Assembly (NCBI GenBank): GCA_019241635.1 | Contig: JAFAWR010000300.1 | Location: 363 to 64,362, forward strand | Direction of reading: 5' to 3' | From: Solirubrobacterales bacterium | GTDB taxonomy: Bacteria > Actinomycetota > Thermoleophilia > Solirubrobacterales > Solirubrobacteraceae | Length of the DNA stretch: 64,000 nucleotides | Part shown: positions 25,409-45,734 of the stretch, piece after piece | Numbering within the stretch: the first letter of the stretch is position 1 | How the letters are laid out: each line of letters begins with the position of its first letter | The notes under the pieces: model-generated | Databases searched by the model: none | What the model was told of the DNA's origin: nothing | Seen by the model: the letters and a program-made list of their open reading frames with translations, nothing else | Position numbers and translations under genes: made by a program

Positions 25409-28400
25409 TCAGGAGACCGAGATCGGTGGCTCGTCGGACGAGGGACCGCCGCCGGGTGCGGCCGGCGCCGGTGCGCCGGATACGGAGCGCGGCGAGAGCC
25501 CCAGCATGCCGGGGCCGCCGGCCATCGACCACTTGAACTGCGTGACGTTCTCCTTCGGAGCGAACAGCCCGGACCGCGAGCCGCGGCGTACGAACAGCAC
25601 CGGCGCCGGCGCCGCCTTGGCGATCGCCGAGCGGGTCGGGCCGAGGCCCTCCTTCCGCCACCGCTCGGAGAGGCCGAGCACCAGCAGCCCCGCCTGCTCG
25701 GCCGCGGCCACGATGCCTTCGCGACCGCCGGCGACGACCAGCGGCTCGGTGGCGATCCCGGTGGCCTGCTGCACGAGCAACCCGGCGTCAGCGAGCAGCC
25801 GCGTCACCGACTTGCCCTCGTCGGACTGGCCCGCGGCGCCGAGGAGCCTGAGCGGCGCCCCGGTGTTCGACGCCAGCCACGAGCCAAGCTCGAGCGCGGC
25901 CCAGTCGTGCTCGGCGCCGCCGAACGGAACCAGGATCGGCTTGTCGGGACCGAGCTCGATCGGATCGCCCTCCTTGGCGACCAGCACGGCCACGTCGGAC
26001 ACGGCATGTTCCATGAGCTCGCCGACCTCGCCGAGCGGGACGCCCTCACCCACCAGCCGACGTCGCCCGTCGGTGAGCACCAGATCGACCGGCTCGTGAT
26101 CGACGATGTGGGCGAGGTCCGAGCCGGGGCTCGACGAGGTGAGCGCCACGCCACGGGCTACGACACCCTCGAGGGCGAGCCGCTCGCGCAGGTCGTTGAT
26201 CGCTCGCGATGCCCGCTCGAGCGCGAGGTTCTCCGACTGCAGGCCGCCGCGCACGCCGGCGCCCGCGCCCCTGGGGGGCTGGACCAGGCGCGCGATGATC
26301 AGCTCGCGGGCCGGCTCGGACCGGGCCAGCGGCTCGGCCAGCGCCACCAGCTGCCCGATGGCGCCGTCGGTTTGCGGAGCGACCAGGATCGAGCGCTCCG
26401 GCACCGGGAGCTCCGGGTGCGCCTGGACCGCGGCGAGCGCGGCGTCGGCGAACTCGTCCTCGATGCCACGGCCGTACTCGTTGCGCGGGTCGAGCAGCTT
26501 GAGCAGCGGCCCGGCCATCAGGGTCGTCACGACCGCCATGATCACCAGCATCGCGAACAGCGTGTTCGAGATCGCGCCGACGTCCAGAGCCAGGTTGAGG
26601 ACGATCAGCTCGGTCAGCCCCCGGGTGTTCATCAGCGTCCCGATGACCGACGATTCCTTCCAGCTGTAGCCGGTAACCCGGGCGGCGATCGCGGCGCCGG
26701 CGAGCTTGCCGAGGATCGCCACCGCGATCAGCAGCAGCGTGAGCAGCCACAGCTCCGGACGGTCGAGCAGGCCGACGTTCGTCCGCAGGCCGGTGTAGAC
26801 GAAGAACACCGGCAGCAGCAGGGTGACCACGAAGTCGTCGATCCGGCGGGTGATCTCCTCGTTCAGGCGCGCGTGCCGCGGCATGATCATGCCGAACACG
26901 AAGCCGCCGAAGATGAACGCGATGTTGATCTCCTCGGTCACGTAGGCGGAGAGCAGGACGCCGATGACGATCGCGGCGAACCACGCGCCGGGCATTCGTC
27001 CCACCTCGTCGAACGCGGTCGCCATGCGCGCAACGACGCGCCGGACGATCAACACCATGACCAGCGTGTAGGCAGTCGCCTCGCCGATCGTCTTCGCCAC
27101 GTCCCCGAACGTCCCCGACGAAGCGATCGTGACCGCGAGCGCGATCAGGAACCAAGCGGTGACGTCGTCGACCGCGGCGCACGCGATGGCCAGCGAGCCG
27201 AGCGGGCGCTTGATCATGCGGCGCTCGGCCAGGATCCTGGCCAGCACCGGGAACGCCGTGATCGACATCGCCACGCCCATGAACAGCGCGAACGCGACGA
27301 ACTTCTTGTCCGGCCCGACGAGCTTGTAGAGCGGGAGCGCAACCGCGATGCCGAGCAGCATCGGCACGGCGACGCTGGTGTTCGAGATCGCCGTGGCCTG
27401 GGCGACCTTGCCCTTCAGCGAGCCTCGATCGACCTCGAGCCCGACCAGGAACATGTAGAAGATCAGGCCGAGGTTGGCCACCACCCCGAGCGCGGACAAG
27501 GTGTCGCTCGGGAAGAAGGTCGCCTGCAGGTTGGCCGAGAACGCGCCGAGCAGCGACGGGCCCAGGCAAAGGCCGGCGATCACCTCCCCCATCACGCGCG
27601 GCTGGCCGACCTTCACCGCGATGACCCCGAACACGCGGGCGACGATCAGCACGATCGCGATGGCCAGGAAGATGGCCGCGATCAGCTTGTTGGCGTCGGC
27701 GCGCTGCTTGGTCGCGGTGAACTTCTCGCCCGCGGGAGACAGACCGGAGGGGGTGGTCAGAGCCGGCTTGGCCTGCGAGGCCGTCGACGGGACCGGCGCG
27801 GCGACCTGGAGCGGGATCACCGTGACCTTCTGAAGCTGGAGGTCGTTGGCGGACGCGGTGAGGCGCGCGGTGCCGCCCTTGATGCACTTGACGTCGCCGA
27901 ACACGCCGGAGGTCTTGCTCGAGTACGCGACCGATCCGAGCAGCGCGCTGCTCGACGAGTAGAGCTGAGCGGACGACCCCGTGCCGTGGATCGAGAACGA
28001 GCTGCCGAAGCAGGTCGAGGCCGGCGACAGCGCGTAGGTGCCCTGGATATTCGGCGGCGTGCGCGGCGCGGCCGCGCCCGGAGCGGGCGGAGCGGCGCTG
28101 AAGCTGGCGGAGAATGGGGCCCCGCCGAGGGTCCCCTTGATCGCGGCTTTGGCGCCCGGGGTGGCGATCGCATCGAGCTTCTGCGACCCACCGGCCACGC
28201 AGTTCACCGTGCCGGTCAGGCGATGGCTGTTGCCGGCGAGTGCCGTCCCGCTGAGCCGTAGCTGCCCGCCGAGGGTGTTCTGGTTGTTGGTGAAGTTCAC
28301 GAACTGCCCGGACTGGAGCAGATTGAACGACGGGCCTGCCGCCGCCACCTGCGTCGGCGCCGTCGACGGCAGCGGAACCCCGCCAGCGGGCTTCGGCACC

Positions 28401-28916: not shown

Positions 28917-29010
28917 TGTTTGCACGTGTCGTGGTGCGCGGCTCCCACGGGGCGGATGCACGGCGCCGCGGCTTGGGAAAAGCCGGCGAGGGTCGCGAGG
29001 GTGCGGAAGT

Positions 29011-29207: not shown

Positions 29208-30365
29208 CTACAGCCCGAGCATTGAGGCGATGCGTACGCGCTGCGTCTCGTTGGTGCCCGAGTAGATCGGGGCACCGATCGCGTCGCGCAGGCCCTTCTC
29301 GAGCCCGTACTCGCGCGTGTAGCCGCGCGCGCCGAAGATCTGGATCGCCGACAGCGCCGAGGCGACGTTGGCCTCGCTGGTGATCAGCTTGGCCATCGAG
29401 ATCTCGGTGGTCACGCTGCGTCCCCGATTGAACCGCCGGGCGGTGTCGTAGAGGTGCTTGCGCGAGTTCTCCAGGCCGATCTTCATGTCGACGATCTTGC
29501 CGGCCACGTACTGGTTGGAGCCGATCGAGGCGCCGAAGGCCTGCCGGGTCTTGGCCCACTTGATGCAGCGCTCCATGCGCTCCTCCATCTCCCCGACCAT
29601 CATCATGAAGATGCACAGGATCTCGTAATTCATGACGTGCTCGAGGATGAAGAAGCCGGCCCCGGGCTTGCCGAGCATGTTCTCCTTGGGCACGCGACAG
29701 TCGCGGAACTCGAGCTCGCAGAACGGGCAGGTGTTCAGCCCGAGCTTCTCGATCGGCTCGCCCACGTGGAACCCGGACGTGTCGGTTGGGACCAGGAACG
29801 CGGTGATGCCGGCGGCCCCGCCCGCGGTGCCGGTCTTGGCGTACACGGTGATGATGTCGGCCAGCGGGCCGCTGGTGATCCAGATCTTCTTGCCGTCAAG
29901 GATGTACTCGTCGCCGTCCTCGGTGGCGGTGGTGATCATCGCCGTCGCGTCCGAGCCGGCGTTCGGCTCGGAGATCGCATGGGCACTGATGATCTCGCCG
30001 TCGATGAGCCGCGACAGATAGCGGTCCTTGAGATCGTCGGATCCGAACTTCTGGAGCGGGATCGCGGCGCTCACGACCTGCGTGGCCAGCGCGAACAGAA
30101 GCCCGGTGTCGCGGCATCCGTAGCCGAGGTTCTCGAGTACGTAGACCAGCGTGAGCACGTCGTGGCCCAGACCGCCCCATTGCTCGGCGAACGGGATCCG
30201 GATCACCCCGCTGTCACGGATCAGCTGCCACTTGTCGCGGTTGAAGCGGTTTGCCGCGTCATCCTCGAGATGACCGGCGTTGAGCGCCTCGAAGTGCTGA
30301 CTCAGTGACTTACGAAGCGATTTCTGCTCGTCGGTCCATTCGCCGGTTGGGGCGGTCAGTGCCAT
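29208..30365 (-). CDS. Carrier-protein-dependent acyl-CoA dehydrogenase-like enzyme (PltE/RedW prolyl-PCP dehydrogenase type)
   Basis: AHAISEPNAGSDA, GKKIWITSGP, IFGARGY, IYSGT (not IYEGT); operonic with A-domain and carrier protein. Confidence 0.85.
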   Translation of the reverse strand: MALTAPTGEWTDEQKSLRKSLSQHFEALNAGHLEDDAANRFNRDKWQLIRDSGVIRIPFAEQWGGLGHDVLTLVYVLENLGYGCRDTGLLFALATQVVSAAIPLQKFGSDDLKDRYLSRLIDGEIISAHAISEPNAGSDATAMITTATEDGDEYILDGKKIWITSGPLADIITVYAKTGTAGGAAGITAFLVPTDTSGFHVGEPIEKLGLNTCPFCELEFRDCRVPKENMLGKPGAGFFILEHVMNYEILCIFMMMVGEMEERMERCIKWAKTRQAFGASIGSNQYVAGKIVDMKIGLENSRKHLYDTARRFNRGRSVTTEISMAKLITSEANVASALSAIQIFGARGYTREYGLEKGLRDAIGAPIYSGTNETQRVRIASMLGL

Positions 30366-30382
30366 CGCGAGTGACTCTCCTC

Positions 30383-30781
30383 TCAGGTCCCTACGACTTC
30401 CCCGTACACGGACGGGTGGACGCCGGACTCGCTGATGCGGTGCGCTTCGTCGCCGGTCAGCGCCGGCGTGAACATGCAGACCAGGCGGAGGTCCTCGTCC
30501 TCACCTCCGAGCAGCCAGTGGGTGTCGTGCTCATCGAGCGCGTACATCCGGCCGGGGAAGATCTCGTGCTCGGTGCCGTCCATCGCGATGACCTTGCCGC
30601 GGCCCTCGATGCAGTAGCACGCCTCGAGATGGTTGGAGTACTCGATCAGCGTCTTGGTGCCCTTGCGCACGGTCGTGTCGGTGAGCGTGTAGCCCATGCC
30701 GTCGGCCTCGAGCAGGAAGCGCCGGCTCAGACCATTGCCCCATTCGACCGTCTTCACGTCCTCCAGGTCCCGAATGATCAT
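30383..30781 (-). CDS. ectC: Solitary ectoine synthase-like cupin
   Basis: MIIR, SRR.LL..DGMG, Y.NHLEACYCI.G, YALD.HD.H, C.F.P.LTG.E.H; no ectA/ectB in the window. Confidence 0.88.
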   Translation of the reverse strand: MIIRDLEDVKTVEWGNGLSRRFLLEADGMGYTLTDTTVRKGTKTLIEYSNHLEACYCIEGRGKVIAMDGTEHEIFPGRMYALDEHDTHWLLGGEDEDLRLVCMFTPALTGDEAHRISESGVHPSVYGEVVGT

Positions 30782-30802
30782 TTATGCCCCTTCGTTGGTT
30801 GT

Positions 30803-31615
30803 CTAAATGGCTGGGATCTGTCCCAGCTCTCCGAGTAGCCCCCGGAAGTCTTCGACCACGTCGCGCCCGGCCTCGCGCGCGGCGGTGACCCGCGCCACGC
30901 AGGTCGAGCCGACGATCGCGGCGTCGGCCCCCACCGCGCCCAGACCGTCGATGTGGCTCTTGTTCTTGACGCCGAAGCCGACCGCGATCGGCACTTCGGT
31001 GCGCGCCCGCAGCGTCTCCATCACCGGGACGAGCGCGCTGTGGTCCGGCGGACCCACGGTGCCGCTTCGGCCGTACGCGGCGACCAGGTAGATGTAGGCC
31101 GAGCCGTGGTCGGCCGCCTCGTGGAGCACCGGCTCCTCCGAGGTGGCGTAGCAGGTGGTGACGATCGGGAGATCGACGGTGCCCGCCGCCTCGTAGTACT
31201 CGGGCTTGAGCCGAGGTGGGAGCCCGTGCACGAGCAGCCCGTCGGCGCCCGACGCCTGTACGCGCTCAAGGAACTCCTTCATCGGCGTGCCCTTGATCGA
31301 GTAGCTCCAGTCGGCGAGCAGCGCGATCTTCAGATGGCTCAGCTCGGGGCGGACGCGACCGATGAAGGCGAGAACCGCCTCGCGATCGATGCCGTCCTGA
31401 AGTGCGCGGCTGGCCGAGGCGCGGATGACCGGCCCGTCGCTGGCCGAGTTCGGGAACGGGATGGCCAGCTCCAGGCAGTCCACGCGAGCCTCGTCAAGCA
31501 TGTGTACGAGCGAGCGGAACGTGTCCAGCGGCGGGTCGCCAGCGTTCAGGAACAGCGCCAAGCCGGGCCGCCCCGGGCGGGCGTCGGCGAAAAAGCGCGT
31601 CGCCGAGGCGGTCAT
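30803..31615 (-). CDS. trpA: Divergent tryptophan synthase alpha-like (indole-glycerol-phosphate lyase-like) protein
   Basis: AGDP, LELAIPF....SDGPVI (catalytic Glu and Asp kept), GADGLLV, VGFGV, AIVGS; no trpB. Confidence 0.88.
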   Translation of the reverse strand: MTASATRFFADARPGRPGLALFLNAGDPPLDTFRSLVHMLDEARVDCLELAIPFPNSASDGPVIRASASRALQDGIDREAVLAFIGRVRPELSHLKIALLADWSYSIKGTPMKEFLERVQASGADGLLVHGLPPRLKPEYYEAAGTVDLPIVTTCYATSEEPVLHEAADHGSAYIYLVAAYGRSGTVGPPDHSALVPVMETLRARTEVPIAVGFGVKNKSHIDGLGAVGADAAIVGSTCVARVTAAREAGRDVVEDFRGLLGELGQIPAI

Positions 31616-32661
31616 GCCACCACGGCCGCCTGCTTGCCGTGCGCCCGCATGCGGTCGATCAGCCGCGCAGGCTCGCGGGCGCTCATCGCATCGGCGGCCA
31701 TCCGGAGTCCCTCGCTCCAGTCGGAGGCGACTTCGCAGTTGATGGCCAGCGCGGCCGCGTTCAGCCTGATGCTCTCGATCGCGCCGATCGGGCCGTCCCC
31801 GCCGAGCAGGGCGAGGAAGTGATCGACGGTCTGATCGAGCTCGGGGACCGGAAGCAGGTCGTCGAACGGGCGCTCGCTCAGACCGAGCTCGCTCGGGCGT
31901 ACGAGGGACTCTTCGCCCCGGACGCTGTCGTACACGTGGCAGTCGACGACGCTCATCAGCTCATCGACCCCGACGTCGTTCCACACCACCCAGTAGTCCT
32001 TGCTCGAATCCTCGGAGACCAGCGACCTGAAGGTCGGCAACACGCTGTGATCCGACACCCCGGTGATCTGGAGTGACACCGGCACGGCGGCCAGGAACGG
32101 GCCGATCAGGTTGAAGAAGCGACCCACGGTCTTCATGTCGAAGGGCAGGATCTGCCGCGCCAGCATGCGCAGCTCCTTGGGGTAGACGAACGGGCCGGCG
32201 CAGGCCATCCCGAACGTGTCGAGCATCTCCTCGGTCTGCTCGTAGGAGCTGGTCTGCCGGATGCCGAGACGATCGAGCAGGTCGACCGAGCCGGTCCGGC
32301 TGGCGTACGCGCGCGAGCCGGTCTTGATCACGCGGGCCCCCATCGCCGCGGCCACGAACGCGGACGCGGTCGAGAGGTTGAACGTGCTCGGGCCGCCGCC
32401 GGTTCCCACGATGTTCACCGTGGTGCGGGTCGGCGGCCCGGGCTGGGGATTGCGGTCCCTTAGCGACTGCAGGAGCGTGCTGACCGAGGTGCCGTCAGGC
32501 ATGCGTGTCGTGAGCGACGACAGCACGGCCAGCGCTTCGCCCGGATGCAGGCTCTTGTCGCCCAGTCGGTCCCAGAAGTCACCCCATACCGCTTCGGAGA
32601 TCGGGTAGCGCTGAGTTACCAGCGCAGCCAGGGCTTCCGATGGCGGAGGCTTAGAGGTCAT
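31612..32661 (-). CDS. trpD: Divergent anthranilate phosphoribosyltransferase-like protein
   Basis: GTGGG..TFNLSTA.AFVAAA.G, GS.D.L..LG, FNLIGP, GVDE, NAAA; KHGN replaced by KTGS. Confidence 0.88.
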   Translation of the reverse strand: MTSKPPPSEALAALVTQRYPISEAVWGDFWDRLGDKSLHPGEALAVLSSLTTRMPDGTSVSTLLQSLRDRNPQPGPPTRTTVNIVGTGGGPSTFNLSTASAFVAAAMGARVIKTGSRAYASRTGSVDLLDRLGIRQTSSYEQTEEMLDTFGMACAGPFVYPKELRMLARQILPFDMKTVGRFFNLIGPFLAAVPVSLQITGVSDHSVLPTFRSLVSEDSSKDYWVVWNDVGVDELMSVVDCHVYDSVRGEESLVRPSELGLSERPFDDLLPVPELDQTVDHFLALLGGDGPIGAIESIRLNAAALAINCEVASDWSEGLRMAADAMSAREPARLIDRMRAHGKQAAVVA

Positions 32662-32712: not shown

Positions 32713-32976
32713 TCACTCGGCATGCGCGGTCTCCCGCGCCTGGTCGACGTAGGCCTTGATCGCCGCGACGGTCCGGAAGCTGTCGGGCCCGAGCTCGGAG
32801 TCGTCGACGCCGATGTCGAACTCGTCTTCCAGCCAGGCCACGACCTTGAGCAGCCCGAGGCTGTCCACGACGCCGCCGGTCAGCAGATCGAAGTCGTCAT
32901 CGAGATCCTCGACCGGGACGTCCGGCATGAACTCCTCGACGATGAACGCCTTGATCTTCTGAGTGGTCTCATCCAT
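32713..32976 (-). CDS. Stand-alone peptidyl/acyl carrier protein (PltL/RedO-like)
   Basis: Acidic, 87 aa, LL.GGVVDSLGLL phosphopantetheine Ser motif; GGAG RBS. Confidence 0.92.
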   Translation of the reverse strand: MDETTQKIKAFIVEEFMPDVPVEDLDDDFDLLTGGVVDSLGLLKVVAWLEDEFDIGVDDSELGPDSFRTVAAIKAYVDQARETAHAE

Positions 32977-34513
32977 TGGCACGACTCCTCTCTAGTGCGG
33001 CCGCGACTGCCTTGCGGTCGACCTTTCCGGTTGATGTTTTAGGTAGGGGCTCGGTGACGATCTCGATCATCGAAGGCATCTCGGTGCGCGCGAGACGTGT
33101 GGCGCAGTGCTGGCGCAGGATCAGGCTGTTGAGCTTGGCGTCGACCTCGCGCCGTACGTGCGCATGCAGGCGGGCGCCGGCCAGCTCGTCGGGCACTGCG
33201 ATGACCGCGACCTCGACCACCGCCGGATGCTCCTGGATGGCCTGCTCGACCACCTGGGTCGAAACCCGCACGCCCCGCACCTTGACGTAGAAGTCCGAGC
33301 GGCCCTCGAGCGTGAGCGTCCCGTCCTCGTGGCGGCGCACGATGTCGCCCGACTTGTAGTAGATGCGTCCGTCGCCGCCGTTCTCGGAGAGCGTGACGAA
33401 CTTCTCGTCGTTGAGCGACGCCTTGAGGTAGCCCCGGGTCTGGAACGGCGTCCAGACCACGAACTCGCCGGTGCCGGCGCCCTCGAGCGCGGTGCCGTCC
33501 TCCTGTTGGAGGCGGGCGATCACGCCGGGGATCGGCTGGCCGACCGGGACGTGGCTCGGCACGTTGCCATCGGCCAGTCCGACGAACTCGTGAATCAGGC
33601 TGTCGTTCGTCTCGGTGCAGCCGTAGAGGTTGTAGAAGCGGGCGTTCGGGAACAGCGTCGGGAGCTCGGCCAGCGAGCTGGCCGGGATCTTGTCCCCGGT
33701 GCTGATCACGTGCCTGACGCTCGGGAACGTTCGCCAATCCTCCCGGTGGACGTCGATCAGCAGGCGGTAGAGCATCGGCACGGCCTGGAGCACGTTGACC
33801 CGGTTGTCGTTGACGAGCTCGGCCAGGTACGCCCCCTGGGTCGCGCGGTCCTGGTCGACCATGGCGACGGTGCCGCCGTGCTTGAGCGTGGTCCAGATGT
33901 CGAGCAGGCACAGGTCGAAGTTGAGCGGCGCGTAGTTCGCCACCACGGTGCCCGCTTCGATCTCGAACTGCTCGGCCGCCCAGTCGGTGAACGCGTCGAC
34001 GCCGCTCGCGGTCAGCGGGACGATCTTGGGCAGCCCGGTGGAGCCCGACGTCGTGAGCATGAATGTCACGTCCTCGCCGCCGCCGACCGGCGGCCACTCG
34101 ATCCCTGCAGCATCGGGTGCGGCGCGCGCGTCATCGACCAGCGCGCGCAGGCTGGCCGCGCTCTCGCTGCGCGGTCCATGCGGGGAGAGAACCTGGCTGG
34201 TGCCAGCCTGAGCAAACAGCTGCGCCAACGTCTCGGGCGCGAGCTCGACCGACGGCAGCAGGAACGACCGGCCGGCGCGGAGACAGGCCAGGATCAGCCC
34301 GATCGCCTCGGGCGACTTCTTGGCCCGGATGCCGACCGGCCGGTCTTCGCGGAGCCTGGCGTCCTGTAGCTCGGCGAAGGACGAACCAGCCAGCTGCTGC
34401 AGCTCGCGATAAGAGACGGGGGCGCCGTCCCAGATGAGCGCGGGTGCGTCCGGCTGGCGCCGGACCTGCTCGGCGAAGTGGTCGGCCAGCGACCGGATCG
34501 CGGTCTGGCTCAT
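32969..34513 (-). CDS. Stand-alone amino-acid adenylation enzyme (PltF/RedM-like, altered pocket)
   Basis: TSGSTGLPK, APLNFDL, NLYGCTETN, YKSGD, GR.D..VKVRG.R, LPKTSTGKVDR; ATGA overlap with the trpC-like gene. Confidence 0.92.
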   Translation of the reverse strand: MSQTAIRSLADHFAEQVRRQPDAPALIWDGAPVSYRELQQLAGSSFAELQDARLREDRPVGIRAKKSPEAIGLILACLRAGRSFLLPSVELAPETLAQLFAQAGTSQVLSPHGPRSESAASLRALVDDARAAPDAAGIEWPPVGGGEDVTFMLTTSGSTGLPKIVPLTASGVDAFTDWAAEQFEIEAGTVVANYAPLNFDLCLLDIWTTLKHGGTVAMVDQDRATQGAYLAELVNDNRVNVLQAVPMLYRLLIDVHREDWRTFPSVRHVISTGDKIPASSLAELPTLFPNARFYNLYGCTETNDSLIHEFVGLADGNVPSHVPVGQPIPGVIARLQQEDGTALEGAGTGEFVVWTPFQTRGYLKASLNDEKFVTLSENGGDGRIYYKSGDIVRRHEDGTLTLEGRSDFYVKVRGVRVSTQVVEQAIQEHPAVVEVAVIAVPDELAGARLHAHVRREVDAKLNSLILRQHCATRLARTEMPSMIEIVTEPLPKTSTGKVDRKAVAAALERSRANG

Positions 34514-35235
34514 GACGACGCTCCCGGGGTGACCGGCGCGCGCAACTCGGCGCGGTGGCGTTCGAAGTCCTGCACCCAGCCGGCAATGCTGTTGGCCCGC
34601 AGCAGGCCGGTCCCGATCAACAGCCCCTTGAACCCGGCATCGATGAGCTCGGCGGCGATTTGCGGATCGAGGATCGCGCTGGCGCTCACCGGGCACGGGG
34701 TGCCGGCGGCGACCGTGGCCTCGAGCAGCGAGCGACTCGTGTCGATGTCGCCCGGCTCGCGCTCGCGCGTGTTGATGTCCTTGTTGTTGACCGCGATGAT
34801 GCAGTCCTCCGGGTGGATCACGGTGTCGAGCTCGGCCCGGTCCACGACCTCGACGAACGGGGTCACGCCGTGCTCGAGCGCAAGTTCGATCAGATGCTGG
34901 AAGGTCTTGGCGGGGAGGATCTTCGCGGTCAGCAGGACCGCCGACGCGCCCATCTCCCTGGCCGCCACGATCTGCTTCTCGCGCGTGATGAAGTCCTTCT
35001 TGAGCAGCGGCTTCTCGGTCAGCCCGGCCACTTCTTCGAGCATCGCGTCGCTGCCGCCGAACCATCGCCCGGTGACCACCGAGATGCAGGGCGCGCCGAC
35101 CTCCACGTACTGGCCGACGATCTCCTCGATCGTGCGCTCGCCCATCAGCTCGGCACCCTCGCCGTCGGAGCGCTTGACCTCCATGATGATCGGCAGGCGC
35201 CCGGCGAGCAGCGCGTCGATGAACGGGCTAGGCAT
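34510..35235 (-). CDS. trpC: Divergent indole-3-glycerol-phosphate synthase-like protein
   Basis: IIMEVKR, ISVVT...F.GS, LLKKDFI, GASAVLL, VEV, VNNKDI; short N-terminus; SESGI replaced by SASAI. Confidence 0.88.
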   Translation of the reverse strand: MPSPFIDALLAGRLPIIMEVKRSDGEGAELMGERTIEEIVGQYVEVGAPCISVVTGRWFGGSDAMLEEVAGLTEKPLLKKDFITREKQIVAAREMGASAVLLTAKILPAKTFQHLIELALEHGVTPFVEVVDRAELDTVIHPEDCIIAVNNKDINTREREPGDIDTSRSLLEATVAAGTPCPVSASAILDPQIAAELIDAGFKGLLIGTGLLRANSIAGWVQDFERHRAELRAPVTPGASS

Positions 35236-37648: not shown

Positions 37649-39004
37649 CTAGTTGACTGCGAGCCCCGAGATCAGCTCCGGGAGCGTGGCTCCCTGCGTG
37701 ATCGGGGTGAGGCTGCCATCGCCGTTGATCGCGAACACGTCGATATGACTGGTCGCCGGCGGCGGCGGCACGTTCGGAACGCTCACGTAGAGGAACCTGC
37801 CGTCAGGGCTGACTTCCTCGTCGGTGGGGCTCCCCGGGCCGAGATCGGTCTGCCCGAGCCGCGTCAACGTGCCACCGGACCCGACCCGATAGGTGGTCAG
37901 TCCACCGGCGCCGGTGCCGATGCCGTTGGGCGGCCCCAGGCTCGGCGCCGTCGAGAGCGTGTTGGTCACGAACGCGAAGCTGCCGTCCTTGGACAGGACG
38001 AGCCAGCAGGCCCCGCGTCCCCCGCTCGTGACCTCGGTGCTGACCGGCGTCAGCGTCCCGGTGCTCGAGAGGGTGTAGGACGAGGCCGACCCGGTGAACT
38101 CAGTCGGATCCAGGATCTCCGGAATGGGCAGGCTGCCCGCCGGGTAGGCGTACGTGCCGTTCACCTGGCCGACGTTCGAGACCAGCAGCGTCCCCGAGCG
38201 CGTGAACGCGAACCCGAACGGGTTCGGGTCGACGCTGGCGGTCCGGTCGGCCTGCTCGAGGGTCAGCGACCCGTCCCGGTTCACCGCGAACGTGTCGATC
38301 GCCCCGACCGTGCTCGGCACGCCGCGCTCGGTCACCACCAGCTGGTGCCCGTCCGGGCTGAAGCCGATCTGGGCGGCGACCCCGCCGGCGTTGGGCGGCG
38401 CCGGACCGGACGGGAACAGAGGCGAGATCAGCGTCTCCGACCCCGGGATCGGCCACAGACGACCGTCGTCGGAGAAATAGAACCCTTCGACGGTGCTGCT
38501 CTGCTCGTTGACCACATAGAGCAGATGGCCGTGCGTGGTCAGGCTGATCGGCAGAACCCCACCCGAGCTGACCCGATCCGCGCGCCTCAGGTGATCGCCG
38601 TCGGCCTGGAACGAGGTGATCGTGTTGTCGCCGTCGTTGACCACGAACAGCAGGCGGCCATCGCCGGCCAGGGCCATCGATCCGGAGGAGTCGACGATCG
38701 GGAAGGTGAACGGCGGCTGCGCGGCGATGCCGGTACCGCCGGTCGGTACGGTGGGACCCTGGGTGAGCGTGCCGTCGCGGTTGCGGTGAAAGACGATCAC
38801 CGCGTTCCCGCTCGGATTGTTGGTGGTGGTGTAGAGATCGCCGCCGCGATTACCGTGGAACCAGTGGCGGACGGCGTGATGGTGCTTGCCGCCCGCCTTG
38901 GCCTGCGCCGTAGCCGGCACGGCCGCGAGCACGACGGCGGCGAGAAGTAGGAGGATCCGTCGCACGAGTCGACTCGCGCGCACGGACTGCCCCGGTCCGG
39001 TCAT
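37649..39004 (-). CDS. Secreted lactonase-family beta-propeller protein (paralog of 36161-37456)
   Basis: Signal peptide; same blade motifs (LFVVNDGDNTITSF, NPFGF, GACW, SPDGRFLYV). Confidence 0.85.
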   Translation of the reverse strand: MTGPGQSVRASRLVRRILLLLAAVVLAAVPATAQAKAGGKHHHAVRHWFHGNRGGDLYTTTNNPSGNAVIVFHRNRDGTLTQGPTVPTGGTGIAAQPPFTFPIVDSSGSMALAGDGRLLFVVNDGDNTITSFQADGDHLRRADRVSSGGVLPISLTTHGHLLYVVNEQSSTVEGFYFSDDGRLWPIPGSETLISPLFPSGPAPPNAGGVAAQIGFSPDGHQLVVTERGVPSTVGAIDTFAVNRDGSLTLEQADRTASVDPNPFGFAFTRSGTLLVSNVGQVNGTYAYPAGSLPIPEILDPTEFTGSASSYTLSSTGTLTPVSTEVTSGGRGACWLVLSKDGSFAFVTNTLSTAPSLGPPNGIGTGAGGLTTYRVGSGGTLTRLGQTDLGPGSPTDEEVSPDGRFLYVSVPNVPPPPATSHIDVFAINGDGSLTPITQGATLPELISGLAVN

Positions 39005-39123: not shown

Positions 39124-40899
39124 TCAGACCAGGCTGGCCTCGCGGCGCGCGGCCACGAGGTCGACCGGCCGGCTGAGCGCCTTGAGCGCCGGCAGTTGCT
39201 CATTCGCGGCGATCCGGCCGGCCTGCAGGAACCGATCGGCGAGATGGAAGTCGCGCCATTCGGCCGGCCCGAAGCGGGGAGTGATCACGACGTCGCCGAG
39301 CGCGGCGTGACGAGCGCTGGTGTCGAGCTGGCTCAGGTCCATCGCCTCGAGGATGGTGTCAAGCGGCCCGCGGCGCCGCGGCTTGGCCGGCTCGGCCTCG
39401 GGCTCGTCGGGCACGCCGGGCCAGCGTTCGAGCGTTTCGGTCCCGAGCAGGTTGACCGACACCACGATGTCGGCGCCGTCCTCGATCACCGCTGCGGTGG
39501 GGACCGGGACGAGCGCGATCGCGTCGATCAGCCGGTGACCGTCGCGCTCCTGGGTGGGAAACACCCCCGCCACCGACAGCGCGGCGAGCAGCGCCTCCCA
39601 GATCGGCCCGCGGCGCTGGGCCACGGGCGCGCGCGCGGTCAGATCGACGGCCATGATCACCAGCGGGACCTGCGTGTGCGAGAAGAACGCGCCCTTGGTC
39701 GCCTCCTTGAGCAGGCCGGTGAGCGTCTCCAGCCCGGCCGAGCCGACCAGCGGCGACTTGAACAGCTGGGCGGTGTTCTCGGCGCTGAACGCTTCGCGGA
39801 AGCGGGCGTCGATCTCGCCGGCGCCATGGCCCAGGGCAAGCTGGCTGGCCACGAAACCGCCGATGCTCGAGCCGCCGACGTAGTCCACGGTGTAGCCCGC
39901 TGCCTCGAGCGCATGCAGGACGCCGACGTGGGCGTAGCCCTTGGCGCCGCCGGCGCCCAGGGCCAGCCCGAGCTTGGTTCGGGTGAGGTGGCGGGCGATC
40001 CATGCCACGTCGGCGTCGGCCAGCGCGAAGTCCGGCTGGCGCGCGCACTCACGCACGACCAGCCTGAGCGCGCTCGGGTGCCACATCTGGCTGGCCTGGC
40101 GCGCCTCGTCGGAGACCAGGATGATCTCGAGTCGCCGGCCCTTCGACGCGGCGGCCACGTTCCCCAGCCGGTTGGCCTCCTCGGCGTTGCCGACCAGGGC
40201 GACGACCCGATCGGCCTCGTCGAGCAGCACGGCGACCGTGTCGGGATCGAACTCCGAGGGGATGAGCACGGTGGCGTTCTCGGTGGCCAGCTCATCGGAC
40301 GCGGTGAGCGCGCCGGCGAACGACAGCGAGCGGTCGGCCACGGTGACCGGCTGGGCGCTGGCCATGCGCGCGGCGGCGATGAGCCCCGGGATCACTCCCT
40401 TCAGCGACGGCCCGGCGATCAACCCGATCTCCTCGCCCCGGTTGGAGCTCGAGCGGACACTCGCGCTGAACAGGGCGGCGCTGCGCGCGCTGGCCCGGAA
40501 CAGGCGCTCGCGCTGGGTATGGATCACGTTGATGAGGATGCGAGGGAAGCGCCCGGCCAGCGTGAGCAGGTCGGCGGCGTCGAGCTCGAGCGTGTCGGTG
40601 ATCGTGCTCGCCGACACCGTGGCGGTGCGCTCGGTGCCGGTGATCGCGTCCTGGGCGCCGATCACGTCGCCCTTGCGCATGCGCAACTCGATCTCCCCGC
40701 CGCCGGCCGTGGTGCCGGCGCTCCAGATGACCAGCCCGCCGGTGATCAGCCAGATGCGATCGCTCGGATCCCCCGCCGCGCACAGCTGCTCGCCGGGCGC
40801 GAACTGGCGCGGACGCATGTGCCCGGCGACCGTGTCCAGCTCAGCGTCGCTGAGCCCTTCGAACAGGCGGATCCCGGCGAGGTTCGTGTCACGGGCCAT
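39124..40899 (-). CDS. cNMP-binding domain + patatin-like Ser hydrolase
   Basis: N-term cNMP fold (GDPSDRIW.I..G...GDVIG...RTATV); GAGGAKG, GSSIG (GxSxG), LIDAI (DGG-like Asp). Confidence 0.88.
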   Translation of the reverse strand: MARDTNLAGIRLFEGLSDAELDTVAGHMRPRQFAPGEQLCAAGDPSDRIWLITGGLVIWSAGTTAGGGEIELRMRKGDVIGAQDAITGTERTATVSASTITDTLELDAADLLTLAGRFPRILINVIHTQRERLFRASARSAALFSASVRSSSNRGEEIGLIAGPSLKGVIPGLIAAARMASAQPVTVADRSLSFAGALTASDELATENATVLIPSEFDPDTVAVLLDEADRVVALVGNAEEANRLGNVAAASKGRRLEIILVSDEARQASQMWHPSALRLVVRECARQPDFALADADVAWIARHLTRTKLGLALGAGGAKGYAHVGVLHALEAAGYTVDYVGGSSIGGFVASQLALGHGAGEIDARFREAFSAENTAQLFKSPLVGSAGLETLTGLLKEATKGAFFSHTQVPLVIMAVDLTARAPVAQRRGPIWEALLAALSVAGVFPTQERDGHRLIDAIALVPVPTAAVIEDGADIVVSVNLLGTETLERWPGVPDEPEAEPAKPRRRGPLDTILEAMDLSQLDTSARHAALGDVVITPRFGPAEWRDFHLADRFLQAGRIAANEQLPALKALSRPVDLVAARREASLV

Positions 40900-40995
40900 G
40901 GTCGCCTGCCAGCGTATGGGGCGCGCGGCGGCCTCGTCAAGGCGCGGGAAAAGGTCACAGGGGCCGCTCGGGCCGTGTATAGACTCACGCCCGAA

Positions 40996-42015
40996 ATGGA
41001 AGCCAGCGACGCACGGGGCGCATCCGGATCTCTGCCGATCGTCACCGGCAAGAAGCTCATGCTGTTCGCCGGGCGGGCCAATCCCGAGCTTGCCGCGGCG
41101 ATCGCGCGTAGGCTCGGAATCGAGCTCGGCCACATCACGCTGAAGACGTTCTCGGCCGGCGAGGTGTACTGCCGGTTCGATGAATCGGTGCGCGGCGCCG
41201 ACGTGTTCATCGTGCAACCGACCTGCGCCAACCCGGAGACCGGGGTCAGCGCCAACGACGCGATGATGGAGCTGCTCGTGATGGTCGACGCCGCGGTCGG
41301 CGCCTCGGCCCACCGGGTGATCGCGGTGATGCCCTGGTACGGCTACTCGCGCCAGGACAAGAAGTCAGCCCTGCGCGAGCCGATCACCGCCCGGCTGGTC
41401 GCCCAGCTGCTCGAGACCGCGGGCATCGATCGCATACTCACGCTCGACCTGCACGCCGGCCAGGTCCAGGGCTTCTTCCGTAAGCCGGTCGATCACATGA
41501 CCGCGCTCCTGCTGATCGCCGACTACTTCCGTGAGCTTGAGCTCGACGACCTCGTGGTGGTCGCTCCCGACGTCGGCCGGGTGAAGCTCAACCACAAGTT
41601 CGCCGAGATGGTCGGGGCCGACCTGGCCCTGATGACCAAGGAGCGCCCGGCCCAACAGGTGGCCGAGGTCGGCTACGTGATCGGCGATGTGCGCGGGAAG
41701 ACCGCGGTGATCCTCGACGACATCATCGACACCGCCGGCACCCTGACCGCAGCCGGCCAGACCGTGCTCGACGAGGGCGCCCGGCGGGTGTTCGCCGCCT
41801 GCACGCACCCGGTGTTCTCGGGTCCGGCCTACGAGCGGCTTGCCTCCTCGCCGTTCGAGCAGGTGGTGGTCACCGACACGATCCCGCTGCGCGAGGGCGC
41901 GCCCGAGAAGGTCGTCGTCCTGTCGTGCGCTTCGCTGCTGGCCGACACGATCCGTCAGATCTTCACCGACGGTTCGGTCTCCGCCGTTTTCGGTGGCGAG
42001 AACCAACTCTTCTAG
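40996..42015 (+). CDS. prs: Ribose-phosphate pyrophosphokinase (PRPP synthetase)
   Basis: FSAGEV, SVRGADVF, YGYSRQDKK, DLHAGQVQGFF, VAPDVG, LDDIIDTAGT, VVTDTIP. Confidence 0.95.
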   Translation: MEASDARGASGSLPIVTGKKLMLFAGRANPELAAAIARRLGIELGHITLKTFSAGEVYCRFDESVRGADVFIVQPTCANPETGVSANDAMMELLVMVDAAVGASAHRVIAVMPWYGYSRQDKKSALREPITARLVAQLLETAGIDRILTLDLHAGQVQGFFRKPVDHMTALLLIADYFRELELDDLVVVAPDVGRVKLNHKFAEMVGADLALMTKERPAQQVAEVGYVIGDVRGKTAVILDDIIDTAGTLTAAGQTVLDEGARRVFAACTHPVFSGPAYERLASSPFEQVVVTDTIPLREGAPEKVVVLSCASLLADTIRQIFTDGSVSAVFGGENQLF

Positions 42016-42190: not shown

Positions 42191-43951
42191 ATGGCAGACG
42201 ACCGTTCGGCGTCGATGCTCGAACTGAAGGCGATCGACGCACCGACCGGCCACTACGACGTGGCGATCCTCGGCGGCGGACTGGCCGGACTGACCATCGC
42301 GATCCAGCTCAAGCGCGAGCGTCCGGAGACCCGGGTGCTGGTCACCGACAAGCGGACCGAGCCGGCGCCCGAGGCGGCGTTCAAGGTCGGCGAGTCGAGC
42401 GTCGAGATCGGCGCCTACTACTACCGCGAGATGATCGGCATGCGCGATCACCTCGAGCGATACCAGCAGCGCAAGCTCGGGCTGCGCTTCTTCATGCCGG
42501 CGGGCGACAACTCCGACATCACCAAGCGGGTCGAGTTCTGCACCCCCGGGCATCTCGACGCGTTCACCCATCAGATCGACCGCGGGCGGTTCGAGAACGA
42601 GCTGTTCCGGCGGGCGCGCAAGGCGGGCGCCGACGCGTTCCGCGGTTGGCGGGTGCAGGACGTGTCGCTCGGATCCGACACCCACACGATCCTCATGTCG
42701 CAGGAGGGCGAGGAGTGCATCGCCACCGCGCGCTGGGTCGTGGACGCCTCCGGTCGCGCCAACATCATGCGCCGCAAGCTCGGCGTGGGCGAGGGCGTCG
42801 ACACCGGCCATCACTGCAACGCGGCGTGGATACGGCTGGCCGGCGGCCTGGACTTCGAGGATTGGACCGACGACGAGGAGTGGCTCGGCCGGATGCCCGA
42901 GAAGGGCCTGCGCATCCACTCGACCTCGCACCTGATCCAGCCCGGTTACTGGCTGTGGCTGATCCAGCTGGAGTCGGGGCCGATCTCGATCGGGGTATGC
43001 GCGGACCCGCGCTTTCACCCGTGGGAGGAGATCTCGAGCTTCGACGCGTGGATGGACTGGATGAAGCGCAACGAGCCGCAGCTGCACGCCGCGCTCGAGG
43101 ACCGCCGCGCGGACGTGCTCGACTTCCTGCGCGTCCAGGACTACTCGTACGGATCGACGCGCTTCTTCTCCGGTGCCGATCGCTGGACGCTGGTCGGAGA
43201 AGCCGGGGCGTTCCTGGACGCGCTGTACTCGCCGGGGTCTGACTTCATCGCGTTCTCCAACACGTTCAGCTGCGAGCTGATCGAGCGTGAGCTCGACGGC
43301 GAGGACGTGACCGAGCTGGCGGATTTCTACAACGACTTCTACCTCGCGCTGTTCAACACGACAGCGCATCTGTACCGCGACAACTTCCAGCTGTTCGGTA
43401 ACCCGCAGGTGATGGTGGCGAAGTTCGTGTTCGATAGTTCTACCTACTTCTCCGGGATCGGCAATGCCTGGTGTCACGGGAAGATGCGCAAGCCCGAGGA
43501 CATCCGGCGATTGGGGGAGGTGCTCCGGCCCGCGATCGAGATGCTCCCCCGGATGCAGGAGCTCTTCCGCGACTGGAACGCGATCGAGAACACGCCATTC
43601 GAGGGCGTGTCGGTGCTGCCCAAGACGCTTGCGCCCTACATCCAGGCGCAGGCCGACATGGCGCATCCGGCCTCGGATGACGAGGTATTCGAGAACTCGC
43701 GCAAGAACGTCGAGTACCTGAAGGCGCTGGCGGTGTGGATATTCCACCGGGCGGCGCGGAATCTGCCCGATCCGCCGGATGAGAACCGGGGCATCAACCC
43801 GCTGGCGATCAGCCTGCACCCGGAGCGCTGGGAGGCGGACGGGCTGTATTCGGACGATGGGATCACGCTGGCCCAGGCGCTGGAGGCGTTGCCGGGTATC
43901 GAGGAGATGGACCTCGAGAAGCGCGGCGCGGTGGTGGCCGCGCAGGCCTGA
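42191..43951 (+). CDS. Flavin-dependent halogenase 1
   Basis: YDVAILGGGLAG, KVGES, RKLG (candidate catalytic Lys), DRGRFE, VVDASGR, WLWLIQL (WxWxIP-like), GEAGAFLD.LYSPG; GGAGG RBS. Confidence 0.82.
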   Translation: MADDRSASMLELKAIDAPTGHYDVAILGGGLAGLTIAIQLKRERPETRVLVTDKRTEPAPEAAFKVGESSVEIGAYYYREMIGMRDHLERYQQRKLGLRFFMPAGDNSDITKRVEFCTPGHLDAFTHQIDRGRFENELFRRARKAGADAFRGWRVQDVSLGSDTHTILMSQEGEECIATARWVVDASGRANIMRRKLGVGEGVDTGHHCNAAWIRLAGGLDFEDWTDDEEWLGRMPEKGLRIHSTSHLIQPGYWLWLIQLESGPISIGVCADPRFHPWEEISSFDAWMDWMKRNEPQLHAALEDRRADVLDFLRVQDYSYGSTRFFSGADRWTLVGEAGAFLDALYSPGSDFIAFSNTFSCELIERELDGEDVTELADFYNDFYLALFNTTAHLYRDNFQLFGNPQVMVAKFVFDSSTYFSGIGNAWCHGKMRKPEDIRRLGEVLRPAIEMLPRMQELFRDWNAIENTPFEGVSVLPKTLAPYIQAQADMAHPASDDEVFENSRKNVEYLKALAVWIFHRAARNLPDPPDENRGINPLAISLHPERWEADGLYSDDGITLAQALEALPGIEEMDLEKRGAVVAAQA

Positions 43952-44000
43952 CAGTCACTCCTGAAAGCAACGAACTTCCGCGATGGACAAAGGAGACAAC

Positions 44001-45734
44001 ATGGGGGATAGGCAGCCGGCAGACAGCTACGACGTGGCGATCCTGGGCGGCGGCCTGGCGGGGTTGACTCTGGGGATTCAGCTCAAGCAGGCCCGTCCGG
44101 AGACGAGCATCTTCATCGCCGAGAAGCGCAAGGGCCTGGCGCCCGAGGCGGCGTTCAAGGTCGGCGAGTCGACGGTCGAGGTCTCGGCCCACTACTTCGC
44201 CGACGTGGTCGGCGCGCGCGAGCACATGGACAGGGATGAGCTGCACAAGTTCGGGCTGCGCTGGTGGTTCCCCGCGGCCGGCAATACCTCGATTGCCGAG
44301 CGGATCGAGCGGGGGATCAACAAGCCGCTTCCCGAGCCGAGCTACCAGCTCGACCGGGGCCGGTTCGAGAACTACCTGGGCGACCGCGCTCTGGAGGTCG
44401 GAGTCGACCGGTTCGGTGACTGCCGCGTGCAGGACGTTTCGATCGGGGACCCGCACGTGATCCGGGTGACTTATCAAGGTGAGGATCGTGAGGTGCGCGC
44501 GAGGTGGGTGGTCGACGCCGCGGGCCGGTCCTTCCTGCTGAAGCGCAAGCTGGACTTGTTGGAAGAGAACGGCCATGTCGTGAACTCGGCCTGGTTCCGG
44601 CTCGACGGGGGATTGGATATCGAGTCGTGGGCCGATTCGGATGATGAGGAGTTCTTTTCGCGGATGTCCGAGCGCGGGCTGCGCCAGTACTCGACCAACC
44701 ACCTGTGCGGTCAGGGCTACTGGGTATGGATGATCCCGCTGTCCTCGGGACCGATCTCGATCGGGATCGTGGCCGACCCTCGCTTCCATCCCTACGAGGA
44801 GATGAAGACGCTGGACGGCGCGCTGGACTGGATCCGCCGGCACGAGCCGCAGCTCGGTGAGTCACTGGACGGGCGGATCGACCAGGTCGAAGACTTCCTC
44901 AAGGTGTCCGACTTCTCGTACGGGTGCAAGCAATGCTTCGACGGTTCTGGGCGTTGGTCCCTGGTCGGTGAGGCGGGGGCGTTCCTGGACCCGTTCTACT
45001 CGCCTGGCTCTGACTTCATCGCGATCTCGAACACGCTGTCGACCGACCTGATCTGCCGGTATCTGGATGGCGAGGACGTGAGTGAGCGCGCGCGGGCGTT
45101 CGATGATCTGTACCTGAACACGTACCGCGTCAACTTGACTCAGTACGAGGGGCAGTACGAGTTCTGGCAGAACGCGATGGTCATGACGGTCAAGATCTGC
45201 GCCAACAACATCCTGTACTGGGGCACCGAGTGCCTGCTGTTCTTCCACGACAAGTACGCGGATCTGGAGTTCATGGCCTCGGTGCGGCCGGACCTGGAGC
45301 GAATCTGGGCGATCACCCGGCGACTCGAGGCGATGTACCGCGAGTGGAACGCTCTGGAAGATCGCGAGTGGCGGCGCGCGATCGTGCCCACGCAGGACTT
45401 CCCGGGCATGTTCCAGCGCCACGTCGACATGGCCGGTGGATTCGACGACGACGGCGTCCGGGCCCGGCTGGCCTCGACGGCAGAGTTGATGGAGGCGTTC
45501 GCCGTGCTCGCGTTCAGCCGCGCAGCGGTCAATCTTGGCGACGCGGCGCCGGGCGAGGACGAGAAGATCAACCCCTACGCGGTGTCGCTGGATCCCTCTC
45601 GGTGGGAGGCCGACGGCCTGTTCGATGGCAGCGGCCTGTCGCTGGTCGAGGCCCGGGAAACCGAGGCGGCCGGGTTGCAGAACCTGTACCTGGAGGCCGT
45701 CGCGACGCCGGCGCCGTCCGAGCCGGTGTCCTAG
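44001..45734 (+). CDS. Flavin-dependent halogenase 2
   Basis: YDVAILGGGLAG, KVGES, HKFG, WVWMIPL, GEAGAFLDPFYSPG; AAGGAG RBS before ATG 44001. Confidence 0.85.
   Translation: MGDRQPADSYDVAILGGGLAGLTLGIQLKQARPETSIFIAEKRKGLAPEAAFKVGESTVEVSAHYFADVVGAREHMDRDELHKFGLRWWFPAAGNTSIAERIERGINKPLPEPSYQLDRGRFENYLGDRALEVGVDRFGDCRVQDVSIGDPHVIRVTYQGEDREVRARWVVDAAGRSFLLKRKLDLLEENGHVVNSAWFRLDGGLDIESWADSDDEEFFSRMSERGLRQYSTNHLCGQGYWVWMIPLSSGPISIGIVADPRFHPYEEMKTLDGALDWIRRHEPQLGESLDGRIDQVEDFLKVSDFSYGCKQCFDGSGRWSLVGEAGAFLDPFYSPGSDFIAISNTLSTDLICRYLDGEDVSERARAFDDLYLNTYRVNLTQYEGQYEFWQNAMVMTVKICANNILYWGTECLLFFHDKYADLEFMASVRPDLERIWAITRRLEAMYREWNALEDREWRRAIVPTQDFPGMFQRHVDMAGGFDDDGVRARLASTAELMEAFAVLAFSRAAVNLGDAAPGEDEKINPYAVSLDPSRWEADGLFDGSGLSLVEARETEAAGLQNLYLEAVATPAPSEPVS

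Follow-up and report, generated by a model that had tools for sequence, protein, structure and literature searches.

A kosinostatin-type pyrrolopyrrole cassette accompanied by a second prs and putative pyrrolyl-carrier halogenases in an uncultured Solirubrobacterales genome

What would be made by an operon in which paralogues of four tryptophan-biosynthesis enzymes are joined to an ectoine-synthase-family cupin, a stand-alone adenylation (A) enzyme, a peptidyl carrier protein (PCP) and an acyl dehydrogenase (ACAD), and do the halogenase genes nearby belong to the same system? This question was raised by a 64-kb stretch of contig JAFAWR010000300.1 (positions 363 to 64,362; assembly GCA_019241635.1), referred to below as the window. 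Its source is a metagenome-assembled genome (MAG) of an uncultured member of Solirubrobacterales, 4.4 Mb in size, 75% complete and with a contamination of 4.7%. Comparison with related loci indicated that the operon represents the eight-gene pyrrolopyrrole cassette of the kosinostatin type in stand-alone form, so that its core is already known, and that the halogenases are members of the cluster.

The eight-gene operon and its kosinostatin-type counterparts

Because the G+C content of the window is about 69%, open reading frames (ORFs) were filtered by third-position GC (GC3) and then scanned against Pfam. The GC3 frame bias backed each gene call of the cassette, which runs on the minus strand as PRAI'-IGPS'-A-PCP-TrpD'-TrpA'-EctC'-ACAD (29208-35965; Table 1), PRAI' and IGPS' being the paralogues of TrpF and TrpC. 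Neighbouring genes overlap by 8, 4, 14 and 4 nt or are separated by 51, 21 and 17 nt; the 14-nt overlap lies between the stop of the A gene and the start of the PCP gene, whose product has the phosphopantetheine site GGVVDSL. The original prediction, an earlier reading of the same DNA from its letters, had described a compact minus-strand operon of eight genes with overlaps or gaps of up to about 50 bp, and the Pfam matches and junctions (-14 to +51 nt) confirmed this description. It had also reported trpB, trpE/G and ectAB as absent; in agreement, no TrpB, TrpE/G or EctA/B domain was found by Pfam in any GC3-supported ORF of the window.

TrpA', TrpC' and TrpD' share 26-32% identity with the housekeeping copies of the MAG. 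Higher-scoring copies of TrpA, TrpC and TrpD sit on two other contigs, C201 and C160, and all Chorismate_bind matches of the genome are likewise on contigs other than that of the window. TrpA' scored 141 bits, about half of the 249 and 239 bits of the two other copies in the MAG (26-30% identity); its 137 bits against TIGR00262 exceed the cut-off of 102, and it occurs without TrpB in the window. TrpC' reached 129 bits with the IGPS family, compared with 271 and 266 bits for the housekeeping copies, and fell below the cut-off of every NCBIfam TrpC model (best 139, cut-off 260). Similarly, TrpD' (146 bits with TIGR01245, cut-off 199; 29% identical to the housekeeping TrpD) and TrpF' (best NCBIfam score 71 bits, cut-off 216) remained below threshold; no second copy of TrpF' was detected by tblastn in the MAG, itself 75% complete. 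TrpD' retains GTGG, NxST, a Lys and G-x-DE, the motifs for phosphoribosyl pyrophosphate (PRPP) and metal, and is altered at the anthranilate site: KHGN reads KTGS, GTGGDG is without its Asp, and HPA reads YPK. These changes were invariant across 11 relatives, and in a TrpD' tree the cassette proteins, that of the window included, were placed far from canonical TrpD. Together, these results supported the view that the trp-like genes of the window are dedicated paralogues and would not serve tryptophan supply, as the original prediction had held in describing them as repurposed; the separate canonical genes are those on C201 and C160. As a separate observation, the MAG seems to carry two housekeeping trp sets, with TrpE, TrpC and TrpA on both of these contigs, which may reflect either a true duplication or the binning of two strains.

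Much closer counterparts were found in the cluster for kosinostatin, or quinocycline B (kst), from Micromonospora sp. TP-A0468 (Ma et al., 2013, Chem Biol 20:796, as cited in PMC7918784). According to this source, a pyrrole unit bound to a carrier is the product of the kstB genes, and this pyrrole is converted together with PRPP into a pyrrolopyrrole by the kstC genes, which are TrpD/F/C/A-like. The unit in kosinostatin is a bicyclic amidine of the pyrrolo[2,3-b]pyrrole type, which feeding studies cited in PMC7918784 and PMC5321127 trace to PRPP. The antiSMASH type of the kst region is given as 'T2PKS, ectoine, NRPS', and a kst-type cluster of Nocardiopsis valliformis as WP_017579213 to WP_017579258 (PMC7918784). 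One TrpD' representative of our search (P0136) is WP_017579242.1 of N. valliformis, inside this range. Its locus, L095, reads A-PCP-TrpD'-TrpA'-EctC'-ACAD-(Transglut_core)-PRAI'-IGPS'-NmrA and is surrounded by deoxysugar, P450, glycosyltransferase and SnoaL genes. Identities between the window and L095 were 51% for ACAD, 65% for EctC', 50% for TrpA', 46% for TrpD', 47% for PCP, 46% for A, 50% for IGPS' and 45% for PRAI'; all eight proteins are thus nearer to their kst-type counterparts (45-65%) than to the genes of their own MAG (26-32% or no match). In addition, the A-domain motifs FDLCLLD, QAVP, I(S/L)TGD and YGCTETNDS are common to the window, L095 and two further loci, L096 and L097.

These comparisons indicated that the cassette is orthologous to the kst-type set across all eight genes. 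The claim of the original prediction that no described pathway has this gene combination was therefore wrong for the core: the same eight genes are in the kosinostatin cluster, for which MIBiG already holds an entry (PMC7918784), a circumstance that the original prediction had itself named as a refutation. Its proposal of a trp-like, PRPP-dependent annulation to a pyrrolo[2,3-b]pyrrole fared better, as this is the role that PMC7918784 assigns to the orthologous kstC genes.

The distribution of the cassette was examined by scanning species genomes with a TrpD' alignment, which yielded 80 loci against which each window protein was then run by tblastn. Close homologues of TrpD' number more than 1000, mostly in Solirubrobacteraceae MAGs. 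Among representative clusters of TrpD', more than 80 scored at E<=1e-30. The eight core genes co-occur in 73-80 of the 80 loci, with the misses mostly at contig ends; this co-occurrence, which the original prediction had proposed to check, is far beyond chance. The cassette was invariant in about 85 loci, in contexts that comprise polyketide synthase (PKS) of type II, nonribosomal peptide synthetase (NRPS), ketosynthase (KS)/dehydratase and stand-alone arrangements. Cultured strains that carry it include Streptomyces jumonjinensis, Rhodococcus rhodnii, Kibdelosporangium aridum, K. philippinense, Actinosynnema and Kitasatospora. In Streptomyces it is accompanied by NRPS modules, MbtH and an ELFV dehydrogenase; in Rhodococcus and Kibdelosporangium by KS, a MaoC dehydratase, a pyridoxal-phosphate (PLP) enzyme and Anthrone_oxy proteins, a context resembled by that of L097, whose TrpD' is only 36% identical; and in Actinomadura by NRPS, PALP and UbiD/UbiX. 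This invariance across contexts suggested a portable unit that supplies a carrier-bound building block. A variant was observed in Actinomadura meridiana (L096, 13555-18985), where an extra 245-aa protein, a PALP protein of TrpB fold and UbiD/UbiX lie among the trp-like genes and the cassette adjoins a large NRPS.

Halogenases, prs and accessory genes linked to the cassette in Thermoleophilia

The TrpD' tree separated an Actinomycetes branch, which is kst-, NRPS- or KS-linked and free of halogenases, from a Thermoleophilia clade with 100/100 support. Among the 62 rows of this clade, 52 have a halogenase and/or prs in the fetched flank. When only Thermoleophilia loci with full flanks were counted, a halogenase gene (Hal) and/or prs lay within 10 kb of the cassette in 50 of 52, the other two ending at the patatin gene. 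The linkage was kept through three gene orders, and in all five genomes whose flank ended at prs, both Hal genes were found immediately past it. In an even sample of 300 genomes from the order of the window, the cassette occurred in four (and in 2 of 23 genomes of the genus); all four have a Hal2 orthologue (at least 65%) within about 13 kb of the cassette, compared with one of the 296 cassette-free genomes (orthologue above 60%), a fragmented one. A lineage-wide core trait was rejected on these counts. The patchy occurrence together with the retained linkage indicated that the window holds an accessory cluster of which the halogenases are members. The link of the operon to prs and two halogenases, which the original prediction had noted 5 kb away, was supported for this lineage.

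Both FAD enzymes resemble halogenases that act on pyrroles bound to a carrier (Table 1). Hal2 has all four expected motifs, namely GxGxxG, the Lys in HKFG (KKFG in PltA), WVWMIP and FLDPFYSPG. Hal1 retains GxGxxG and the Lys (RKLG), and in it WxWxIP reads WLWLIQ and FxDP reads FLDA. From the solved relatives and the genomic linkage, Hal2 would act on a carrier-tethered pyrrole. The prs gene, whose 70%-identical second copy is on contig C285, begins 5.0 kb from the PRAI' start. Even with the limited flanks, prs accompanies the cassette in 34 of 65 Thermoleophilia-type loci. The second copy fits a dedicated PRPP supply for TrpD'. Among the same 65 loci, a homologue of the cyclic-nucleotide (cNMP)-binding patatin-like protein was adjacent in 47, and one of propeller 1 was present in 49. 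The former has the oxyanion motif GAGGAKG, the nucleophile motif GGSSIGG and candidate Asp motifs (DAI, DGA), and might speculatively be considered a candidate off-loading enzyme; the latter begins with a hydrophobic, signal-like segment. The novelty here lies in a Thermoleophilia clade whose cassette goes together with PltA/Bmp2-like halogenases, a second prs, a cNMP-patatin protein and secreted beta-propellers. The genes from patatin to ACAD and the genes prs-Hal1-Hal2 diverge from a 96-bp region, through which the two operons could be regulated jointly.

Table 1. Predicted features of the cluster and its borders in the window
Feature	Position	Strand	Basis or remark
Na_H_Exchanger-Usp protein	25409-28585		Pfam; 622 bp downstream of ACAD
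ACAD, prolyl-carrier-type acyl dehydrogenase, last cassette gene	29208..30365	-	Pfam Acyl-CoA_dh_N/M/1
EctC', ectoine-synthase-family cupin	30383..30781	-	Pfam Ectoine_synth 1.8e-36
TrpA' (tryptophan-synthase-alpha paralogue)	30803..31615	-	Pfam Trp_syntA 3.3e-41
TrpD', PRPP-dependent phosphoribosyltransferase, altered aryl-amine site	31612..32661	-	Pfam Glycos_transf_3
Stand-alone peptidyl carrier protein (PCP)	32713..32982	-	Pfam PP-binding
Stand-alone adenylation enzyme (A)	32969..34513	-	Pfam AMP-binding + AMP-binding_C
TrpC' (IGPS paralogue)	34510..35235	-	Pfam IGPS 3.1e-37
TrpF' (PRAI paralogue), first cassette gene	35228..35965, start approximate	-	Pfam PRAI 9.5e-10
Beta-propeller 1, secreted, 7-bladed (Lactonase family)	36161..37456	-	Pfam Lactonase 5e-20
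Beta-propeller 2, secreted, 7-bladed (Lactonase family)	37649..39004	-	Pfam Lactonase 4.5e-25, signal-like N-terminus
cNMP-binding + patatin-like acyl hydrolase	39124..40899	-	Pfam cNMP_binding + Patatin
96-bp divergent intergenic region	40900..40995	.	between patatin-to-ACAD genes (-) and prs-Hal1-Hal2 (+)
prs, second PRPP synthetase	40996..42015	+	Pfam Pribosyltran_N 6.9e-47 + Pribosyl_synth
Hal1, flavin-dependent halogenase-like, variant motifs	42191..43951	+	best solved match PltA 5dbj
Hal2, flavin-dependent halogenase, pyrrolyl-S-carrier type	43983..45734	+	PltA 1.6e-23, Bmp2 5bva 7.7e-20, Mpy16 5buk

Further observations concern the halogenases and the occurrence of the cluster in environmental data. 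In one related genome (L018; G004:C6:132527-134277), the Hal1 orthologue is in four frame-shifted pieces and Hal2 looks intact; the split gene may be either a pseudogene or an error of long-read assembly. A PNPOx_N + cNMP-binding protein and a Flavin_Reduct protein are encoded 13 kb from the cassette (14392-15840), and in 12-13 of the 80 loci (e.g. L045, L049 and L056) such a pair is an immediate neighbour of the cassette. The Flavin_Reduct protein may serve the halogenases as their reductase. A root-metagenome run (X2) contains pieces identical to the window and a rock-metagenome run (X1) near-identical ones, and either run may be the source sample. A soil metatranscriptome (X24) contains short contigs of relatives (150-290 nt, 90-95% identical) that cover parts of TrpA', TrpD', PCP, A, prs, Hal1 and Hal2 and carry no information on level or strand; they give at most a hint of transcription, with DNA carry-over being possible.

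Proposed chemistry and competing explanations

The nature of the first ring was assessed from the A enzyme, ACAD and EctC'. The A enzyme matched PltF (6o6e) at 1.5e-47, and its specificity code, D-L-L-(Q/Y)-I-T-L-D-S-K, is invariant across all clades, the kst-type included. The code keeps D235, the alpha-amino anchor, as well as K517 and the scaffold of stand-alone proline enzymes. Stand-alone L-Pro A domains have the consensus L(L/F)YLALVC, in which the residues at 301 and 330 are in direct contact with the proline ring (PMC3874040); the window code differs at 301 (T), 330 (D) and 331 (S). The best solved relatives of ACAD are the prolyl-acyl carrier protein dehydrogenase AnaB (4irn, 1.6e-88) and an L-prolyl-PCP dehydrogenase (5zw0); its nearest NCBIfam models, PigA (366 bits, cut-off 500) and RedW (327 bits, cut-off 650), do not accept it as their equivalog. 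EctC' exceeds the cut-off of PRK13290 (137.5 bits, cut-off 128) and is the single EctC in the MAG, at 75% completeness. Compared with EctC of P. lautus (5onn), it keeps the iron ligands E57, Y84 and H92 and the contacts W21, S23, R25, T40, Y52, C104 and F106, with N38 replaced by T and a 3-residue insertion after W21. The motif readings of the original prediction (A-domain code, KHGN to KTGS in TrpD', intact metal ligands in EctC') hold. Taken together, these features would be consistent with the loading of a proline-like cyclic amidine. The EctC family forms cyclic amidines, among them ADPC (5-amino-3,4-dihydro-2H-pyrrole-2-carboxylate) from glutamine (Czech et al., 2019, PMC6344544). Moreover, by atom count, the bicyclic core and its carboxyl minus two ribose carbons leave C5N2, which would correspond to glutamine. 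In chemical terms, such an origin would also be economical.

We therefore propose the following route. EctC' would cyclise L-glutamine to ADPC, which the A enzyme would load onto PCP, and the prolyl-type ACAD would oxidise the ring to a 5-aminopyrrol(in)e-2-carboxyl thioester, its order relative to the trp-like steps not being fixed. TrpD' would then use PRPP supplied by the dedicated prs to N-ribosylate the exocyclic amine, TrpF' would carry out the Amadori shift, TrpC' would close the second ring on the neighbouring ring carbon, where no decarboxylation is needed, and TrpA' would cleave off glyceraldehyde-3-phosphate by a retro-aldol reaction; these trp-like steps are modelled on known trp chemistry and on the role published for kstC. 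In the Thermoleophilia clade, Hal2 and perhaps Hal1 would halogenate the carrier-bound heterocycle with reduced flavin, and the cNMP-patatin hydrolase may, speculatively, release it. It is probable in our view that the cassette builds a carrier-bound acid of the pyrrolo[2,3-b]pyrrole type (a bicyclic amidine), here together with prs and halogenases, and the product is likely to be a halogenated form of that acid. The more specific proposal, a minimal pathway of about 11-14 genes from glutamine and PRPP to free halogenated pyrrolo[2,3-b]pyrrole-2-carboxylate with EctC' supplying ADPC, is considerably more doubtful.

Other explanations of the same genes were weighed. The original prediction had offered, as its alternative, a free (halo)indole coupled to a pyrrole unit, in which the trp-like genes would supply tryptophan or indole to a proline-derived pyrrolyl-carrier partner. 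TrpA alone can release indole, and the A enzyme, PCP and ACAD do resemble the pyrrole-forming triad. However, the anthranilate-site motif of TrpD' is altered, TrpD', TrpC' and TrpF' are below equivalog cut-offs, the A-domain code at 301, 330 and 331 is unlike the L-Pro consensus, the eight-gene set is without a coupling enzyme, and EctC' would be left unexplained; PMC7918784 also assigns the kosinostatin orthologues to the pyrrolopyrrole, not to indole. This explanation was rejected as very improbable. It is also rather improbable that the cassette merely has prs, both FAD enzymes, the patatin and the propellers as neighbours and that the product is not halogenated. Such a view could draw on the absence of these accessory genes from all Actinomycetes versions of the cassette, on the Hal1 variants and on the roughly 5 kb of unrelated-looking secreted propeller genes in between, but it is opposed by the conserved 10-kb linkage through three gene orders, by the Hal genes just past prs in every flank-limited genome, by the near-restriction of Hal2 orthologues to cassette genomes and by the identity of the best solved relatives of Hal1 and Hal2, which are pyrrolyl-S-carrier halogenases.

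The likeliest of the alternatives keeps the cassette and the annulation and differs in the origin of the first ring: the A enzyme would load nicotinate, and ahead of the TrpD'F'C'A' steps ACAD, EctC' and others would turn the pyridine into a pyrrole by reduction, opening and contraction of the ring. It has in its favour the origin published for the kosinostatin ring and the A-domain code, which is the same in the window and in the kst-type locus. Against it, the A enzyme retains the D235 alpha-amino anchor and the stand-alone-proline scaffold, and ACAD is of the prolyl-carrier type. Nicotinate is C6N1, so that one carbon must go and one nitrogen be gained, and the eight genes are without a deformylase, an oxygenase or an aminotransferase; KstB7, for which a deformylase role has been proposed, shows no conservation across other kst clusters (PMC7918784). 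We regard the nicotinate route as possible but unlikely. Since the eight genes have no obvious means of removing carbon from, or adding nitrogen to, nicotinate, a first ring from glutamine through EctC' and ADPC was preferred, tentatively and with a confidence somewhat short of even.

Several points weigh against the glutamine-based halogenated pyrrolopyrrole proposed here. According to the feeding results reported in PMC5321127, PMC8400222 and PMC7918784, the first ring of kosinostatin derives from nicotinic acid, and, since the A-domain code is identical, the substrate must be the same in the window and in kst; the roles of the kst genes are themselves second-hand, through PMC7918784. The code has an ambiguous position 278 (Q or Y) owing to a 6-residue loop insertion. 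Furthermore, the kosinostatin unit is a reduced bicyclic amidine, which bears on the oxidation state of the window product, and none of the stand-alone or halogenase-linked cassettes has a known product. The cluster is without condensation (C), KS or thioesterase domains, and release by the patatin is a guess. Hal1 deviates from the halogenase pattern in two motifs, the flavin reductase gene is 13 kb away and the MAG is incomplete (75%). A literature search for a halogenated pyrrolo[2,3-b]pyrrole gave nothing relevant, with a search phrase that may miss the printed name, and a search for later mechanistic work on the kst pathway likewise gave nothing relevant.

The enzymology by which EctC-like, ACAD and trp-like enzymes arrive at the bicyclic amidine of kosinostatin is apparently still unexplained in the literature. 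The window holds the same eight genes without PKS or NRPS, with its own PRPP supply and with halogenases, which would mark any product with an easily recognised isotope signature; these properties make its clade a compact system for reconstitution and for deciding between glutamine and nicotinate. If the ADPC route is correct, the origin from nicotinic acid published for the kosinostatin pyrrolopyrrole would have to be revised, and if the product is halogenated pyrrolo[2,3-b]pyrrole-2-carboxylate, it would be an isostere of indole that is not known among halogenated natural products. More generally, the cassette appears to be a widely shared, portable building-block module, present in at least four contexts across Actinomycetota, and the Thermoleophilia clade points to a halogenated heterocycle not yet known, in uncultured soil Solirubrobacterales.

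Surroundings of the cluster and comparison with known systems

The antiporter (Na_H_Exchanger-Usp) gene, which the original prediction had noted downstream, was rejected as a member of the cluster. It is conserved in 34 of the 80 loci, all from the closest relatives, which are also syntenic further out (GAF-histidine kinase, response regulator, CHASE2 cyclase), and it is missing from more distant Thermoleophilia loci that retain Hal, prs and patatin; as its conservation goes with wider synteny, it was not counted. The 622-bp gap between ACAD and the exchanger (28586-29207) has no clear coding frame bias, and a gap of similar length (527 bp) is found in L010/L035; an Rfam search of 25000-46500, this gap included, gave no family at the gathering score. 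On the other side, a VWA_CoxE protein and a MoxR-like AAA ATPase follow directly after Hal2 on the minus strand (45780-48270); they are probably not part of the cluster, since they occur in none of the 80 related loci within the flanks. The region 7492-25342 is dense in signalling genes, with three Hanks-type kinases (one GAF-fused), two FHA proteins, two adenylate/guanylate cyclases (one with CHASE2) and one GAF-HisKA_3 histidine kinase. This region, together with two cNMP-binding proteins near the cluster, suggests a possible cyclic-nucleotide control. Two large GC3-supported ORFs (740 and 642 aa) at 3111-7194 match no Pfam family.

Compared with ectoine synthase and the 'orphan' EctC-type proteins, EctC' is likewise a cupin with an intact Fe triad and nearly all substrate and product contacts. 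In contrast to EctC, it has no ectA or ectB in the window and is always embedded in a carrier-protein cassette. With the housekeeping TrpD-TrpF-TrpC-TrpA branch, the window set has in common the folds, the PRPP, metal and phosphate motifs and the presumed logic of N-ribosylation, Amadori shift, ring closure and retro-aldol cleavage, whereas TrpE, TrpG and TrpB are absent from the cluster and the TrpD motifs are altered. In the systems for pyoluteorin (PltF/PltL/PltE/PltA) and marinopyrrole (Mpy), as well as in Bmp1-4, FADH2-dependent halogenases likewise come after a stand-alone A enzyme, a carrier and a prolyl-type ACAD. Unlike these, the halogenases of the window are about 585 aa long, carry a long extension at the C-terminus and share only about 25% identity with PltA, and EctC' and four trp-like enzymes are obligatory partners in the cassette.

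The closest known system is that of kosinostatin, represented here by L095, which has the same eight genes, an identical A-domain code and a PRPP-dependent, trp-like ring construction on a carrier. The gene order is permuted, PRAI'-IGPS' being first in the window and last in L095. The window is without the type II PKS, the sugar genes, NmrA and the transglutaminase-core gene, and adds prs, two PltA-type halogenases, the cNMP-patatin protein and secreted propellers. Its product is probably a small halogenated heterocycle, in contrast to the spiro-anthracycline of the kosinostatin pathway.

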